Origin: Octopus vulgaris | Taxonomy: Eukaryota | Length of the DNA stretch: 64,000 nt | Direction: 5' to 3' | Assembly (NCBI GenBank): GCA_951406725.2 | Contig: OX597839.1 | Coordinates: forward strand, 36,084,001 to 36,148,000 | Shown: positions 2,341 to 60,885 of the stretch, piece by piece | Layout: each line of letters begins with the position of its first letter | Numbering within the stretch: the stretch's first letter is position 1 | Made by a program: the position numbers and the translations under genes | The notes under the pieces: model-generated | The model's input: the letters and a program-made list of their open reading frames with translations, nothing else | Databases searched by the model: none | Told to the model about the DNA's origin: nothing

Positions 2341-2891
2341 GTGTATATATGATAAGACCGATATTTAAATAACGATCTTATCCTTATATAAATTTATATA
2401 TATATACACACACACACACACGTATGAATAGGTTTAGCGATGCAAAGAGGAAAAATACAACCCATAGCATGTGTAGAGATAGATGCAGGATTACAGAGTG
2501 ACTCAAGGGCCGAGATTTTCGTGCGTTACCACTTTATATAGGGTTACAGTAGATCAATCCTACGCTTAACTCGCATCGCCGACGTGATTAGAAAATCTTT
2601 AGAACTCCCAGATAGGTTATGGTGCCGAGTCTATGCACCGTATATACAAAATGAACTCGGTAGTAAGGTACACGTGTTTCGTGGGATTGGAAGATATCTG
2701 CCACTCACATGAAACACATGTACACTATATAAAACATTAATATAGGCTACATTTTCTGTGTTCCTTATATCCATATGTGCAAGTGTGTGTGCCCATACGT
2801 TTGGTATATTAAACACACACACACACATAAACATACATACTTGTATGTATGTATGTATATATATTGTTTCTCTCCTTGTTTTTTCTGTATA

Positions 2892-2929
2892 TCTTTCTGT
2901 TGAAGAGCGTAGGCTCGAAATGTAAAAGA
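2892..2929 (+). ncRNA. Minimal type-I hammerhead-like motif, variant core (family H1), in a ~165 bp dispersed element (~2860-3025)
   Basis: tcttt-CTGTTGA-A-gagc(gtag)gctc-GAAA-tg-TA-aaaga. Stem I is tcttt/aaaga, stem II is gagc/gctc, and stem III is 1 bp. Confidence 0.65.
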
Positions 2930-3697
2930 CTTTTTCTATTTCTATTCCTTAGCGCTATACTAATACATTTGTTTGTTTGTACTCCACCTGCCTTCGTCTT
3001 CTGTTTATTTTCGTAAACTTTCCTTATATATATGTGTGTGTGTGTGTGTAATCTTTCTTTCTTGACTTGACTACCGACCGCCATCATTTCTTGTATCCAT
3101 CTCTTGTGTTCCTGCCTCAAGGCTTTCACCCTATACACGCCAGCTCAATTTGATTCACACTCACTAGTCGAAAGACACCTGTTGTTATATTCTTGTTGTT
3201 TGTATTCGTAATGGTGTACCATGTTCTCCGTCTTATGTCTTTGTAACCGTACACATTCACTTGCTTTCTTACAAAGAATCTAATGCTCTTAGCTTAGACT
3301 TTTTGGGAGCAACTAGACTTGAACAGTCTCAAGTGTAACTACCCGAAACTGTAAGGACAATTTGGAAACTTGACTGATGACTTGTCCTTCTATTTGTTAT
3401 TTTTCCTGTCCACTTCTGTATCGTTTATTTGTCCGGGTGTTTTATTATTCTCTATTGCATTTTTCTCCCATTATATATTATATGTATTAAAGGTAGAACA
3501 TAAAAACACAACAAATGGAAACCGCCAAAACACAACGTGCAGAAAAAAGGACGACAGCACGACAACGGCAAAGCGGACGAAACAAGATGCACGGATCATT
3601 CACAGCCAATTCCCTCTTCAGTCAAAGTCCAGAATGTCCACATAGTTTCGCCCATCCATATATAGATATGCTTCAAATGACTGAAACAAGTAAAAGA

Positions 3698-6865: not shown

Positions 6866-7204
6866 CATTTATCTATTTATATAAACTCTACAGATTCTTT
6901 GGAATTCCTAATGTATATCCTGTAGCAAGAGAATTTCCAGTGTATGATGACATCAGGAAGCCAATACCTGTGGATGGGCTTTACCTAGCATGCTACAGGG
7001 TTTTTTCACTCAAATCTCATGTAACTAATACACACACACACACACTCACAGGCAGACACACATACAGAGATACATAAATACATGTATTCTAAAACAGAAA
7101 AGAAATGAATATCAAAAACTTGAATTCAGACTATTTTCAATCAATGGCTGTTGCACCTTACACACCAAATAAAATTACCTATGATCAGCCTCCCTACTTC
7201 ATCA

Positions 7205-7725
7205 TCGCTCACTCATCACACACCCTGCAGTCAACACCTCACTCAAACAGCCCTACACATCACATGCCTTCTTCTGAATACAACCCCCGCACTCAACAAT
7301 CCTACTCATTCACTAAGCCACCACAACTCAATACCTCCACTCAACAGCTCTAACCATCACACACACACACACACACAACCTTCACTCAACAACCCCCACT
7401 CAAGAACTTCTACTCAATAACCAACACTCAACAAGCCACACTCAACAATCCTATTCATTAACAGCCTTCACTTAGCCACCACTACTCAATAGCGTCACTC
7501 AACAGCTCTAACCATCACACACACACACACACCCAGGCAATCCTCACTCACCAACCTCGAATCAACAATCCCCACTCAATAACCAACACTCAACAAGCCA
7601 TGCTCAACAAGCCACACTCAACAAACCTACTCATCATATCCTCCATTCAATATCTCCACTCATCAGACCTACTCATCGCACACACTCAACAGCCCCACTA
7701 AACAACCCCACTCAACAGCCCCCAC
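7205..7725. repeat. Degenerate CACTCAAC(A) minisatellite
   Basis: Frequent cactcaac/tactcaat motifs at 13-16 bp spacing, with ~150-bp higher-order duplication. Confidence 0.85.
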
Positions 7726-8725
7726 CCAACCCCCTCTACGCAACATCCCTCCACCCCACACAAAACAACAACCCAACCCTACCCCCCGGCAGCTCCCCAC
7801 TACAGTGTGATTGAAGAGAAACGCGAACATTTTATTACAGGTATTTTTTGAAATGCTGGCAAGGTAGGGTTTCAGCAAATGCCGATGTGAAGAAGAAGAA
7901 AAAGAAGAAGAGAGAGAGAGAGAGAGAAGAGGGAAGAGAGAAAGAGAATGGTTTACCGTTTCCATCATGTAATCTATAGAATCTAGTAAAAGAGTCCGGA
8001 AATAGAAACTGAGATCGGAATATATTTAGAAAGCTTTTTTACATGTCTGGAATCTATAATGGCAGAAGACATGTTGGAAACTGGTTTACTGCAGAGGTGG
8101 AGGAGGGAGAGGCGAGATGGGGGTGTTTGTACGTGTGGTTGTGTGTGTGTGTGTGCATGAGAAGATGGTGTGTGTGTGCATTGAAAATGGAGACGTGTGT
8201 GTGTGTGTGTGTGTGTGTGTGCATGAGAAGATGGTGTGTGTGTGCATTGAAAATGGAGACGTGTGTGTGTGTGTGTATGTAAGAGAAAGAGAATGGGACA
8301 AAGAAAGTGTGTGTTTGTGTGTGTGTGTGTGTGTATGTGTGTGTGTGTGAAGATGGTGTGTGCTAAAAATGGTGACATGTGCATGTACGTGTGTGAGTGT
8401 GTGTGCGTGAAGGTGATGACGTGTGGGTGTGAGCGCGAAGAGGTGATGTCTTTGTGTATGTGCATGTGTGTGTGTGTGTGTGTGTGATACTAGCTAATGT
8501 TTATGTTAAAGGGAATGTGTGTTAGTGTGTTTATATATCTGAAGATGTATGAAGTGTATGTGTGTGTGTAGATAGTGTTCTGTATGTGTGAAAGATGGTG
8601 ATTTTTGTGTGTGTATGTGTGTATGTGACTCAATGTGTGCGAGTGAAAATAGTGACGTGTGAGAGTGCATGTGTGTAGTTTTATCTAATATTTAAGCTTG
8701 AGAGAATATGGGTTAGAAAGAGAGG

Positions 8726-8758
<33 letters not shown>

Positions 8759-10919
8759 GTATTTTATTAGGATATTAAGATATCCCCAGTATGAGCGACT
8801 GAGTATAGCTGAGTGTTGAATGAAGCAGAGTTTTGAGTGGAGAGGAGTGTTGAGTAGAACTGAGTAGAGTGAAGTGCTGAGTTTGAGGATCAAATGGCTT
8901 ACAAATAACAGAATATCACTGAGACACAGAAGGAGAGGTTTCTGATCAAATATATAATGTGCCTCAATGGTTGAATAACAGTTATATAACGGTTATATAA
9001 TAGATATATGATAAGGTTGATATGTGGGTGGGGAATGCTGGCTGTACAGGGTGGCCATTTTGGGAGATAGTAGTAGTAGTAGAAAATATATTACTTTCAA
9101 GGAAGAGAGCATGTGATGATTATATAATGCATATATAATTAAAACATTGTTGTTATGTAAAGTATATATAATTTATACTTGATCGTTATATAACGTATAT
9201 GAAATGGCCATATAAAACATATATGTGGGCATATAATGTTGCTCTTACAGAATATGTAATGCTTCTAATATCAAGTTAACGAGTAAAAGCGGAATAATAT
9301 CCATAGCAGTTTTCAACACTACACCATGTATGTGTGTGTGTGTGGGCGTTTGAGCCTGAATGATTGCTGCATTTTGCATGGTACACCATACATTCTGCTG
9401 TATGATTACCTTACCAAGCAAACATGAAACTTGAAGTAGCTCCAGAAATTCATGAAACTTGGAAAACTCCTATTATAATTCATTAAATGACATTTATCCC
9501 CCGCTAAATTGGGGTCTTTTCTGATGATCATATCGACATGTGAAAATAAACCATTCAATGAGAGTACAGTATACTGAATTTCAAATAAGTGCTCTTGGTA
9601 AGGAAATGTCTAAAATCTTAAAGGTATTTAGACATTTAATATATATACATGCATACATACCAATATTTTATGGCGGGATAGAATTAATAAGTGTCTCTTG
9701 TGTTTAACTGATGGCACTTAATTTGTGCTAAACCCCAGAAAAATAAAGGGTGATATCTGAACTTTATTGTGATTTGAACTCAAAATAGTTTAGTGATAAG
9801 CTAACTACGATAACATATCCTGTTTCACTTCTTGGACATGTACACTACTCTCTCAAGAAATATTTAATTAGATGATATGTAAAGATGTCTCAATGAAAAT
9901 TGTCCATTGTTTATTGGTCGTCTGTCTTTTCTTCGGCAGACGACCGACACAAATCAATATCATTTGGCTGCCTGTTTTAACTTATAATAAATTATAACCT
10001 TTCAAATATTTGATTTAATATTTTCCCGCTTTTAATAACGACTTCAGCAAACAATTGCTTCACTGTAATAACTACGATATAGTTGCTATTTAATATGTCT
10101 AACCCATTCGCTAGTAGTGTCGCCTACTTTTTACATATTCTTTCAGAAATCGAGGATGACCTTAATCGTCTACATCCTTTCTCTGGGTATATGAGATATT
10201 CGAGACCGTGTCCCTGTGTTAGAAATCAATATATATTCTCTGTGTTATGTGTGCTTTAGTTCCAATCAATATCTCTTCTCTATGTACGCTTTAGAGTCCG
10301 ATCGATATATCTTCTCTGTGTGTGTGCGCTGTAGTTCCAAGTTGCCGAAGTAGAAACGTTCTTCTCTTCGCCATTGACGTTTTTCATCCACATTGCTTAT
10401 GTTGTTATTCATTTATTAATTTATTTTTTCCCCCATTTTATTTCTGTAAAAAAAAAAAAATATATTTACGATATCTCTTAATCGTTGTTATTGAAAAATT
10501 TCTCACGATATTTGAAAAATTGACTACAATTGATTTACCATTTAAAGACAAACACATTTCCATCTTCTTCCTCTCTTTATCTTCGTCTTCATCTTTTGCT
10601 ATCATCTTTCTCTTTCATCTCGCTCAGGTTTAATACGTTTAAAATCCCCAGTTATGGCCAATCCGATTTCTTAAAACCATTTACAGATGTTAGCAATCAA
10701 TATATGTTGTATTATTGAGAGGGAAAAGCAGCTTCAGATTAAATATAAAACTCCATATTTATTAAATTGTCCAGAATGTATTGGAGGCTATCAGCACTTT
10801 TTTTCTTTTTTATCGATACCCACGTAAATATTCCTTAAATCCAGCCAAAGTTTTGTGATTTCCAATATGACAGACAAAGAAATTGAAATAATAAAGAATG
10901 AGAGAACTGTTTTATATTT

Positions 10920-12055: not shown

Positions 12056-12145
12056 CATTTATCGAGTTTAATGCCTTTTATCGTATGTCCGATGAATCAA
12101 AACTGGCTTGGGGTTTTAATTAACATCTAACCCACACTAATTACA

Positions 12146-12183
12146 GCTTTCTGATGATTGTCAGTTGTCAGAAACGTTTGAGC
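12146..12183 (+). ncRNA. Minimal type-I hammerhead-like motif with canonical CUGAUGA core (solo, slightly decayed)
   Basis: gcttt-CTGATGA-t-tgtc(agtt)gtca-GAAA-cg-TT-tgagc. Stem I pairs 4/5 (one G-U), stem II pairs 3/4, and stem III is the palindromic ACGT. Confidence 0.5.
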
Positions 12184-12486
12184 CCATGGCCTAAAGTTTT
12201 TAACTTTTACTTTTGATGTTTTTCACTTCGTTGTGGTGGTGGTGGTGGTGGTGGTGGGTGTAGGTGTTGGTGTTGGCGGTGAAAGAAATGATAATGATGA
12301 TGATGATGGTAATGGTGGTCCTGGTGATGATGCCTAATTAATTATTAGATTTACGAAAATCATCTAATTAATTTCGCTAGAGAACACAAGAGAGTTGATA
12401 ATGAAAAGATACGAACACACACACACATACATATATTCATATATATTTATACACACACACGCACACATGTATGTATATGTATATAT

Positions 12487-26960: not shown

Positions 26961-27330
26961 CAATAAACCATACTTTACACTTTGCAGCATTGCATTCAGT
27001 AGCCATTTCCTCATTTATTGACAAACAATGACTCTCGCGCACACACGCGCGCACGCAGTGTTGCGTATTTTCATACATACAAGTGCCTCATAGCAAATGC
27101 TCAATATAATAAACAGATTAAATGTAAAGAATAAACCAATTAAAAAACAGTTATTTAAGTATACTGGGGGAGAACACAAGCTATATCCCTACATATTTAA
27201 CAACAGACACACACATAAATACTTCTATGGGTGGACACACACGTACGTATATGTATATTTATGCACACACATATATATATACGCGCACACAGCTACATAT
27301 ATATGTATTTCTCTCCCTCTCTCTATGTGT

Positions 27331-27364
27331 GTGTTGAAGAGCGTAGGCTCGAAACGTGAAAGAC
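27331..27364 (+). ncRNA. H1 hammerhead-like motif, 5' decayed (element ~27305-27435)
   Basis: gTGTTGA-A-gagc(gtag)gctc-GAAA-cg-TG-aaaga, followed by the family tail ctttc..gagcgtcaaactaataca. Confidence 0.5.
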
Positions 27365-27432
27365 TTTCTTACCTTCCCGAGCGTCAAACTAATACACCTG
27401 CTGTCTTCGTCTTTTGTTTTTCTGTAACTTTC

Positions 27433-27482
<50 letters not shown>

Positions 27483-30342: not shown

Positions 30343-30706
30343 GTGTGTGTGTGTGTGTAGCTATGTATATACACCTTCTTGACTTACGACCGAGTTCCAT
30401 TCCGACTGACAGGATGTAAGTCGATCTGGTAGTATGTCGGATTTATATTTTTCAGTAGCAGGGTAGTAGAATAAGTGCTACGCTTACACAGAGTAAGTCC
30501 TGGGGTCGATTTGCTCGACTAAAGGCGGTGCTCCAGCATGGCCACAGTCAAGTGACTGAAACAAGTAAAAGAGTAAAATAGTATATATATATATATATAT
30601 ATATATATAACGGGAAGGTTTACGAAAATAAACAAAAGACGAAGGCAGGTGGAGTACAAACAAACAAATGTATTAGTATGGCGCTCAGGAATAGAAATAG
30701 AACAAG

Positions 30707-30744
30707 TCTTTTACATTTCGAGCCTACGCTCTTCGACAGAAAGA
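30707..30744 (-). ncRNA. H1 hammerhead-like motif (element ~30610-30810)
   Basis: Minus strand tcttt-CTGTCGA-A-gagc(gtag)gctc-GAAA-tg-TA-aaaga. The flanking element closely matches 2860-3025. Confidence 0.65.
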
Positions 30745-30940
30745 TACACAGAAAAAAAAGGAGATATAAAAATGCGTGTAGGAGCTTACGATCTATCATG
30801 GCGTTCTATATATATATAAGGGTAGTAACAAAGAACTATAAATACAAGTAAACGAGAGAGGAAGGTGGGTGGCAACGAATTACAAATATGAGAGAAGAGA
30901 GAGAGAACAAGAACGAGAGAAATAAAGTGACACACACACA

Positions 30941-31899: not shown

Positions 31900-32067
31900 A
31901 AGTAGCTTGCTTACGAACCACATGGTTCCGGGTTCAGTCCCATTGCGTGGCACCTTGGGCAAGTATCTTCTTCTATAGCCTCGGGCCGACCAAAGCCTTG
32001 TGAGTGGATTAGATAGACAGAAACTGAAAGAAGCCCGTCGTATATATATATATATATATATATGTAT

Positions 32068-32117
<50 letters not shown>

Positions 32118-32285
32118 ATACGCCGGCCTCTCGCATAGTGTTTCCGTCTACCAAATTCACTCACAAGACTTTGGTCAGCCCAGGTTCTATTGTAGAAGAA
32201 ACTTGCCCAAGGTGTCAGACGGTGGAATTGAACATGGAACCTTGGAGCTGCCAAGCGAACTGCTTAACCACACAGTCACGTACCT
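31900..32285. mobile_element. Two SINE A 5' halves in inverted orientation around a (TA)n tract
   Basis: 31900-32042 (+) and ~32135-32285 (-) both match the SINE A head and CORE-like segment. Confidence 0.75.
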
Positions 32286-42553: not shown

Positions 42554-42612
42554 TATTTCTTTTTGTTTTCGTTCTTTTTCTTATCTCTTCACTGCCTTTT
42601 CTGATGCTTTTC

Positions 42613-42650
42613 TTTTTCTGAGAGAGGACTAGTGTCCGAAACGTCAAAGA
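42613..42650 (+). ncRNA. Divergent H1-related hammerhead-like motif with covarying stem II and GUC site
   Basis: ttttt-CTGAGAGA-ggac(tagt)gtcc-GAAA-cg-TC-aaaga, followed by cttt..gtgttaaactaatac, similar to the H1 tail. Confidence 0.6.
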
Positions 42651-43022
42651 CTTTTAATCTTTTTAAGTGTTAAACTAATACGACATTTCTTAAAACTTGT
42701 CTCTCCTGCGTTGCCCTCATTTATGCTTATTGTCAAATACACACACACACTCACATACACACTTGCACAGACACTTATATAAATATGTATATGTAAACTC
42801 ATTATTTATATTATAATTCATGATTTATATTATTTTATTTTTTCTCCAGTGCCAGTTCTGCTGCTGAAATAAGAAGTCGGCAAATTGAAGGATTGCAAGT
42901 TCAATACCACTTTAAACCAATCACTGAACTCTATATTGTTTCAGTTAAATTTATCCTGGAAAGAATAGGTGTCAATATTCTTTTAGAGCCCTTCCTCCCA
43001 AAGAACCCATTGTATATGTATA

Positions 43023-49689: not shown

Positions 49690-50286
49690 GGCGGCGAGCT
49701 GGCAGAACCGTTAGCCCGCCGGGCGAAATGCTTATCGGTATTTCGTCTGCCGCTACGTTCTGAGTTCAAATTCCGCCGAGGTCGACTTTGCCTTTCATCC
49801 TTTCGGGGTCGATTAAATAAGTACCAGTTACGTACTGGGGTCGATATAATCGACTTAATCTGTTTGTCTGTCATTGTTTGTCCCCTCTGTGTTTAGCCCC
49901 TTGTGGATAGTAAAGAAATAGGTATTTCGTCTGCCGCTACGTTCTGAGTTCAAATTCCGCCGAGGTCGACTTTGCCTTTCATCCTTTCGGGGTCGATTAA
50001 ATAAGTACCAGTTACGTACTGGGGTCGATATAATCGACTTAATCTGTTTGTCTGTCATTGTTTGTCCCCTCTGTGTTTAGCCCCTTGTGGATAATAAAGA
50101 AATAGGTATTTCGTCTGCCGCTACGTTCTGAGTTCAAATTCCGCCGAGGTCGACTTTGCCTTTCATCCTTTCGGGGTCGATTAAATAAGTACCAGTTACG
50201 TACTGGGGTCGATATAATCGACTTAATCTGTTTGTCTGTCATTGTTTGTCCCCTCTGTGTTTAGCCCCTTGTGGGCAATAAAGAAA
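49690..50286 (+). mobile_element. SINE family B, head plus three near-identical 184-bp tandem units
   Basis: ggtatttcgtctgccgctac recurs at 49737, 49921 and 50105. Confidence 0.93.
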
Positions 50287-59076: not shown

Positions 59077-59477
59077 CACATGCGCGCTCATGAGGGTGTG
59101 TGTTCATGCGTTTGTTTATGTTACGTGAATTGATGTGCAGTAACTTAGCCATTCGGCAAATAGTCCTTTACGAAGTAAGTTCTAACCTCTGGTGCTCCAG
59201 CATGGCCGCAATCTAACTGCTGAGTTCAATAGAAGTCTAAGAGAAAAGAATACAGCAAATATTGTATACGTGCATACCTACACACACCCCCACACATGCA
59301 AGCACCCCCACACACAAAAACACACATACACACACTCACACACACATGGAAAGACCCCCCCACCCACAAACACACACACACACACACACGTATATGGTTC
59401 AAAGTTATACAAAAAGATAAGACAGGTGAAAGACCAGTAAAGATGTATTAGTTTGACGCTTCGGGAAAATGGATGAA

Positions 59478-59516
59478 GATTTTGACGTTTCCAGTCTACG
59501 CTCTTTTAGAAAACGG
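59478..59516 (-). ncRNA. Decayed H1 hammerhead-like motif (element ~59395-59575)
   Basis: Minus strand gtttt-ctaaaa-gagc(gtag)actg-GAAA-cg-TC-aaaat, with H1 tail cccgaagcgtcaaactaataca. Confidence 0.4.
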
Positions 59517-59623
59517 AATGGGGAGAGAAAACAGAAAAACAAAGAGACGTGCCTGGATTAACGATTGCACGTGTTGAATGTGTGTGTATGTGTGTATTCA
59601 AGCATATACATACACACACACAC

Positions 59624-60048: not shown

Positions 60049-60090
60049 CGAGGACAGGTTATTAGTTTGACGCTTCGGAAAATGAAAAAG

Positions 60091-60128
60091 TATTTTACGT
60101 TTCGAGCCTACGCTCTTCCACGGAAAGG
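60091..60128 (-). ncRNA. H1 hammerhead-like motif (element ~60055-60180)
   Basis: Minus strand ccttt-CCGTGGA-A-gagc(gtag)gctc-GAAA-cg-TA-aaata. Confidence 0.55.
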
Positions 60129-60345
60129 AATAAGAGAAAATAAACAGAGAAAACGAAAAAAACTTGTAGATTTCGCGAAGTATATATATGTATATATATA
60201 TATCTCATTTTTGTATCTGGTTTGCAAGATTTTTTATGTGAATTCGCGTGTTGAAGCATATTTTATTGTGCCTGGGTAGAGTCATTCTGTTTTAATGCCT
60301 TATTAATTAACACACACACCAGTTCGATTTCCACTTATTTTTTTT

Positions 60346-60709: not shown

Positions 60710-60800
60710 TATACGGAGAATTAACACACAGAAAAAGACGAAGACGAGTGGTGTAGACAACAAATAGATGTATTAGTATAACGCCCGGGAAGTGAAAAAG

Positions 60801-60838
60801 TCTTCAACGTTTCGAGCCTACGCTCTTCCACAGAGAGG
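60801..60838 (-). ncRNA. H1 hammerhead-like motif (element ~60715-60880)
   Basis: Minus strand cctct-CTGTGGA-A-gagc(gtag)gctc-GAAA-cg-TT-gaaga. Confidence 0.55.
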
Positions 60839-60885
60839 AACACAGAAAGAAACAAGGAGAGAAAATGGAGAATGTGTAGTGTGTG

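Follow-up and report, generated by a model that had tools for sequence, protein, structure and literature searches.

A small repeat dispersed through a 64,000-nucleotide stretch of Octopus vulgaris DNA (the window) is the 5'-truncated 3' end (pLTR) of an ORF-bearing Penelope-like retrotransposon (PLE) of about 4.4 kb, and it carries a minimal type I hammerhead motif in which core position 6 is U in place of the conserved A across an entire clade of copies. The rest of the motif remained unchanged as the family evolved, which suggests that it is likely a slowed-down, still working self-cutting RNA.

Copies in the window were located by nhmmer using the copy at about 2860 (copy 1) as the query. 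All seven places named in the preliminary description were recovered, six at E <= 1.3e-7 and the copy at 42.6 kb at E 0.027, confirming that the repeat is real. Six of the seven can be treated as one element, as had been proposed, whereas the 42.6 kb copy belongs to a separate rare family with A6. The features are as follows.

2864..3026, + strand: 5'-truncated pLTR fragment (3' end) of a putatively Neptune-type PLE, young subfamily, with 90-92% identity to both pLTRs of the full-length copy L061.
2892..2929, + strand: minimal type I hammerhead motif of copy 1, read from the sequence.
27311..27435, + strand: older-subfamily copy, cut at about C3, with U6 at 27334 and G17, followed by (TA)n.
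30610..30807, - strand: young-subfamily copy with C3 at 30739 and U6 at 30736, ending at (TA)14.
42555..42740 (ends approximate), + strand: copy of a related rare, non-U6 family, with stem II GGAC/GUCC, A6 at 42621 and a garbled box.
59390..59543, - strand: old decayed copy of the GUAG-loop clade with a damaged core box.
60057..60161, - strand: old-subfamily copy with box CCGUGGAA and U6 at 60120, its 3' part interrupted by another repeat.
60714..60871, - strand: intermediate-subfamily copy with C3 at 60833, U6 at 60830, G7 and U17, lying between (TA)n tracts.

Copy 1 is flanked on both sides by microsatellite tracts, and its motif reads UCUUU-CUGUUGA-A-GAGC GUAG GCUC-GAAA UG UA-AAAGA, with C3 at 2897, U6 at 2900, N7 at 2901, an extra A at 2904, stem II with its GUAG loop at 2905-2916, GAAA at 2917-2920 and H17 at 2924, the predicted cut lying 3' of H17. 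This reading agrees with the hammerhead layout given previously, as does the presence of U at position 6 in five of the seven copies (2900, 27334, 30736, 60120 and 60830). Position 15.2 of copy 1 is U, which is ascribed to CpG decay of the ACGU palindrome. Stem I reaches 5 bp only in the subfamily of copy 1 and has 3-4 bp across the clade. The family of the 42.6 kb copy has three exact matches in the genome, and the other two carry the canonical CUGAUGA. Matches to the Rfam hammerhead model were absent from those listed at E <= 10 on 2870-2960, and an Rfam scan of the window returned microsatellite-driven miRNA matches and no hammerhead among the best 150 of 347. Spurious miRNA models are also drawn by a long imperfect hairpin at 31975-32189, where two related repeats face each other across (TA)n. 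Elsewhere in the window, a 184-bp SINE-like repeat is present in three tandem copies, 99% matched, at 49737-50286. A hammerhead-like text at 12143-12190 (CUGAUGA, U, imperfect stem, GAAACGUU) was set aside, as it is single-copy in the genome search and so either an old relic or a chance occurrence.

Uridine at position 6 is a trait of the family and not the result of copy decay, as had been argued from the window alone. In the genome searched (2.8 Gb, 227 contigs), the exact 27-mer occurred 15,730 times with U6 versus 602 times with another base, mostly C among the matches listed, so that the CUGANGA with A6 of PLE minimal hammerheads is replaced in the great majority of copies; the reversed 27-mer, used as a control, gave 0 matches. 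When both core boxes were left free, U6 was found in 94 of the 100 matches listed from a total of 19,333, and H17 in the same 100 was A in 78, U in 20, C in 1 and G in 1, a composition that agrees with the NUH rule. A relaxed pattern gave 23,216 U6 versus 13,302 A6 matches; the U6 matches listed all had the GAGC/GCUC-type stem, and the A6 ones mostly belonged to other families. The U6 clade is the largest minimal-hammerhead family counted in the genome, and with the motif in more than 20,000 copies the element is as abundant as had been supposed. About half of the 100 A6 matches listed belong to an unrelated canonical family (L075-L103) with a GGCUG/CAGCC stem II and a 10-nt loop. Among copies selected by their flank, position 6 was T in 28 of 28, one of these being a damaged copy in which the alignment at that position is doubtful, and contigs of four runs from four coded organisms contained no position-6 variant above 5%. 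N7 varied both in these contigs and along the subfamily ladder, which supports the earlier view that this position is free. The other hallmarks of PLE minimal hammerheads are present, namely stems I and II, the extra base after A9, the G10.1-C11.1 pair, the palindromic 15.2-16.2 and the NUH site.

U6 is derived from A6, since related families outside the clade keep A6. In a midpoint-rooted tree of 91 rows built without the 3-9 box and H17, GUAG-loop copies formed one clade (99/94) with the A6 families outside; the rows were partly chosen by core pattern and the bootstrap was not fully settled. The U6 clade has flank sequence in common with three A6 families. At the clade's base the GUAG loop arises jointly with U6, and both remain fixed thereafter. 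N7 passes through U, C, G, A, C and U along the subfamily ladder and H17 through A, U, A and U. A large ancestral subfamily combining A6 with the GUAG loop was considered and rejected, with only 2 such copies among the 100 old-subfamily matches listed; two A6 copies with this loop group weakly near the clade base (84/78).

Constraint on the motif following the A6U change was assessed on copies collected by a profile search with the downstream flank only across 664 kb of contiguous DNA. This gave 31 copies, from which 3 of 4 neighbouring near-duplicates were dropped, and a flank-only tree was built from the short alignment of the remaining 28, the flank rate serving as the null. Shared non-CpG variants were absent from all 14 core columns and all 4 loop columns, and were present in 2 of the 16 stem columns and at both N7 and H17. 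In the flanks they affected 23 of the 69 columns downstream and 27 of the 31 upstream, where the alignment is poor. On internal branches, the downstream flank accumulated 0.51 changes per column, with 0 changes in the 14 core columns against 7.1 expected (P 8e-4), 1 change in the 34 motif columns against 17.2 expected (P 6e-7), and 8 changes at N7 and H17, the two sites that the hammerhead consensus leaves free. This pattern indicates that the motif stayed constrained after the A6U change. Per column, N7 and H17 underwent 4 changes on internal branches, compared with 0.5 in the downstream flank, an excess that may reflect tuning or local hypermutability. There was no stem covariation among the 28 copies of the U6 clade, and compensatory pairs were seen only against related families (stem I C-G versus G-C; stem II GAGC/GCUC versus GGAC/GUCC). 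Coding constraint was rejected as a cause of the conservation: in L061 the ORF starts about 600 nt beyond the hammerhead, and N7 and H17 are 23 nt apart and so cannot both be third codon positions.

The explanation we favour, and consider on balance probable from the pattern of conservation, is that the A6U minimal hammerhead is an attenuated but still catalytic ribozyme. By analogy with an Anolis element, the element's protein would nick (TA)n DNA and reverse transcription would start at a point about 100 nt 3' of the hammerhead, in most cases breaking off early and leaving short copies. Cutting 3' of H17 would require either a dimer, formed through the ACGU palindrome, or assistance from the element's protein. 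The A6U change would weaken the CUGA turn and is predicted to create a 3-bp pairing that masks the palindrome; the RNA would then be cleaved slowly and would mostly remain intact as a template for copying. A natural A6C hammerhead is described as slow but active, with a preference for Mn2+ (PMC3088659, PMC7151607), and the PLE hammerhead studied in PMC11167929 is reported to be protein-assisted, with uncut RNA as the main template. Against a need for cutting, hammerhead-dead mutants are reported there to insert normally in vitro, and Naiad PLEs are described as being without canonical hammerheads (PMC8557442).

Folding predictions bear on the proposed masking. The 38-mer alone does not have an exceptional folding energy (z -0.2 to -1.3, four of four copies folded), and in longer context the predicted minimum is a structure other than the hammerhead. 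A predicted helix pairing U4-G5-U6 with A15.1-C-G would hide the dimer palindrome in U6 sequences, the G5-C15.2 pair having P 0.75 in 17 U6 sequences versus 0.10 in 2 A6 sequences. However, ACGU is also masked in the A6 sister families, in another register, which makes the masking argument for U6 a weak one. The idea that U4C strengthens the same helix as A6U failed (P 0.01).

A second explanation, to which we give a distinctly lower though still appreciable probability, is that the motif no longer cleaves and has been kept as a hammerhead-shaped fold or sequence that is bound by the element's protein for positioning of reverse transcription or packaging of RNA. The predicted cut site lies inside each of the 31 flank-selected copies and is the starting point of none; a looser search added no copy that starts there, and copies of the A6 families seen likewise span the site. 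The RNA used as template is accordingly either uncut or religated. Conservation of loop II equals that of the core, which a protein-binding site would produce as well. The same direction is indicated by the dispensability of cleavage in vitro for another PLE (PMC11167929) and by a mutational scan of another hammerhead in which every single mutation in the CUGA turn is reported to give low activity (PMC9901934). Further support comes from a sister PLE-type family with a UCC loop II, tied to the element by flank homology only and not via the ORF, which has 11,607 matches in the genome (e.g. L077, L127, L146 and L147). Among the 100 of these listed, position 4 was C in 68, U in 30 and A in 2, and G17 was present in a small subgroup of 4; in the unbiased 664-kb stretch, C4 was found in about half of the family's 12 matches. 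The amplification of U4C supports a tolerance, perhaps a preference, for weakened cores, and as this family was amplified with both U4C and G17, good cleavage does not seem to be required. The binding explanation is opposed by the fact that only N7 and H17 change along the lineage and that H17 avoids G in the U6 clade, which is the pattern of a catalytic constraint, and the joint retention of G5, G8, G12, A13 and A14 is not what protein binding would be expected to demand.

It is improbable, in our estimation, that the U6 core is instead fully competent, with the conserved GUAG loop or the element's protein compensating for the lost A6 contacts. The joint appearance and fixation of the loop and U6 at the clade base would fit such compensation, as would the size of the clade relative to all A6 matches (23,216 versus 13,302). 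However, a full pairwise scan of another hammerhead is reported to have given no compensating pair (PMC9901934), and the candidate upstream partner of the loop, a CUAC that might form a pseudoknot with GUAG, was rejected because this tetramer varies among subfamilies. Neutral hitch-hiking of a dead motif in a successful family is very improbable and already largely refuted by the internal-branch test: any mutation of a master element would be copied to thousands of places, but successive subfamilies changed their flanks, N7 and H17 and not the core, and ORF fragments of old versus young subfamilies are only 55-90% identical.

The parent element was reached by walking upstream from genomic copies of the repeat, leading to L061, in which a frameshifted ORF is flanked by two copies of the terminal sequence spaced 4.4 kb apart (pLTR - RT/GIY-YIG ORF - pLTR). 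This ORF has RT motifs and a GIY-YIG domain, with CSRPRCRTC as the linker. The same tandem pLTR junction is present in L218. As in endonuclease-positive (EN+) PLEs, there is a single ORF carrying RT plus a GIY-YIG domain at its C terminus, direct terminal repeats arise from a partial tandem arrangement (L061 and L218), and 5'-truncated copies have a 3' end in common; a T-rich region 5' of the ORF was seen in L061 only. When 10 of the 20 ORF loci were extended, the hammerhead-bearing pLTR was found in 9, with U6 readable in 8; one locus had a rearranged box and one was without the hammerhead-bearing end. There was no fully intact ORF among the 20 loci. A 583-aa open stretch in a copy other than L061 matched RVT_1 (E 6.5e-7) and, below the Pfam cut-off (17 versus 22.6 bits), GIY-YIG (E 0.007), and the GIY-YIG region of the ORF contains YIGQT, R..EH and CCHH motifs. 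Among 8000 scored candidates, 782 protein relatives were found at E <= 1e-20, the named ones being from animals; a PDB sequence search with the ORF gave 0 matches. A CX2-5CxxC linker lies upstream of GIY-YIG, as CSRPRCRTC in L061 and at residue 437 of the L197 frame, and this linker is described for Neptune and also Nematis elements (PMC8557442). The element is accordingly best assigned as a putative Neptune-type EN+ PLE by a linker motif that Nematis shares. Forty long genomic matches have 93-96% identity to L061 (L061 itself aside), and a C-rich 3' region of about 0.9 kb separates the ORF end from the hammerhead. Together with the motif layout, this parentage bears out the earlier assignment to the PLE-type minimal type I hammerheads. 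The tandem junction, at 2450-2470 on the minus strand of L061 and also in L218, contains a short TATATAT exactly where genomic copies end, suggesting that the element carries a copy of its own preferred target. Fragments of an unrelated non-LTR reverse-transcriptase ORF directly follow the element at 7000-9500 on the minus strand of L061.

The 30 best genomic matches retrieved all stop at the same 3' point, about 100 nt beyond the hammerhead (H17), and have ragged 5' ends extending 27-243 nt upstream of C3; these loci were selected with a 159-nt query, so that shorter copies could not appear among them. Young copies with a recognised 3' end ran into (TA)n about 100 nt after H17 in 42 of 50 cases. 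At L120/L121 and at about 168,232,459-168,232,656 of contig C2, two copies lie on opposite strands within 145-200 bp of each other, as is seen in inverted PLE insertions. At about 36,341,500-36,342,300 of contig C26 (L173), three near-identical units of about 270 bp lie in tandem, each with a U6 hammerhead end and a shared non-element flank; this looks like a local duplication, and dimer formation would be possible if it were transcribed. The earlier reading of the repeat as a separate non-autonomous SINE- or retrozyme-like element, to which the shortness of most copies and the L173 array might seem to point, is almost certainly wrong and is already refuted for the young subfamily: there is no fixed 5' end, the sequence runs on into the ORF-bearing element, the array units include unrelated flanking DNA as in local duplication, and the copies are dispersed and single and joined to an ORF, unlike the non-coding tandem hammerhead units without an ORF-bearing parent of non-LTR retrozymes. 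Because the sequence continues upstream into an L061-type unit, the window copies are truncated ends of the ORF-bearing element.

Returning to the slow-cutting ribozyme, the role of the hammerhead for PLEs is itself at issue, since it cleaves weakly, some clades do without it and it is dispensable in one in vitro system; here, a lineage altered a core base held to be invariant, after which the remainder of the motif was retained across many subfamilies. We tentatively raise the possibility that PLE lineages in this genome twice independently fixed changes in the uridine turn, A6U in the present clade and U4C in the sister family, with the catalytic guanosines kept. These might then be natural, selected slow-cutting or protein-switched hammerheads, and U6, the commonest minimal hammerhead counted here, might be a working variant missed by every CUGANGA search. 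The natural A6, U6 and C4 forms, present in related elements within a single genome, provide a comparison set for whether cutting, slow cutting or the fold is selected. In this genome, most such motifs escape a search that requires CUGANGA.

Minimal hammerheads of metazoan PLEs were described by Cervera and de la Pena (2014) as having a short stem I and lying in pLTRs, in thousands of single copies, with a consensus that includes an extra base between A9 and G10.1 and a palindrome at 15.2-16.2 (PMC4209133). The octopus motif resembles these in its type I layout with no real stem III, its palindromic A-C-G-U, the extra base between A9 and G10.1, the G10.1-C11.1 pair, the U-rich 5' flank, the pLTR location and the dispersal of truncated elements as thousands of single copies. 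An additional base following A9 had been noted before and is present, but as a consensus feature of PLE hammerheads it does not need the viroid (CChMVd) precedent then invoked. The difference is at position 6, which is U here and A in all 56 representatives in Fig. S3 of that study, whose search required A6; a core variant described there is U3-A8. Everything but position 6 was therefore already published in 2014. A full-text search, which did not include Lünse 2017, the largest variant catalogue and one that could list U6, found no published A6U hammerhead in PLEs, the one listed match for A6U being a paper on twister, and within that literature the clade-wide A6U is new, the minimal PLE hammerhead itself being of a known kind. 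Compared with the EN+ Neptune and Nematis PLEs described in PMC8557442, the element shares the linker and the (TA)n bias, and it differs from the Neptune elements described there in its long C-rich 3' region between the ORF end and the hammerhead. The A6C hammerhead of phage Bcep176 (PMC3088659, PMC7151607) likewise combines a pyrimidine at position 6 with an otherwise intact core; however, it is a single phage example with C that has been assayed (slow in Mg2+, preferring Mn2+), whereas the octopus variant has U throughout a clade of more than 20,000 copies and is known from sequence. The closest parallel in insertion behaviour is Poseidon PAc of Anolis (Frangieh et al. 2024, PMC11167929), in which insertions also end at a fixed point downstream of the hammerhead, span the cut site and occur at AT-rich targets, but the PAc ORF is reported to start inside the hammerhead, whereas here the hammerhead lies in a non-coding pLTR and carries U6.
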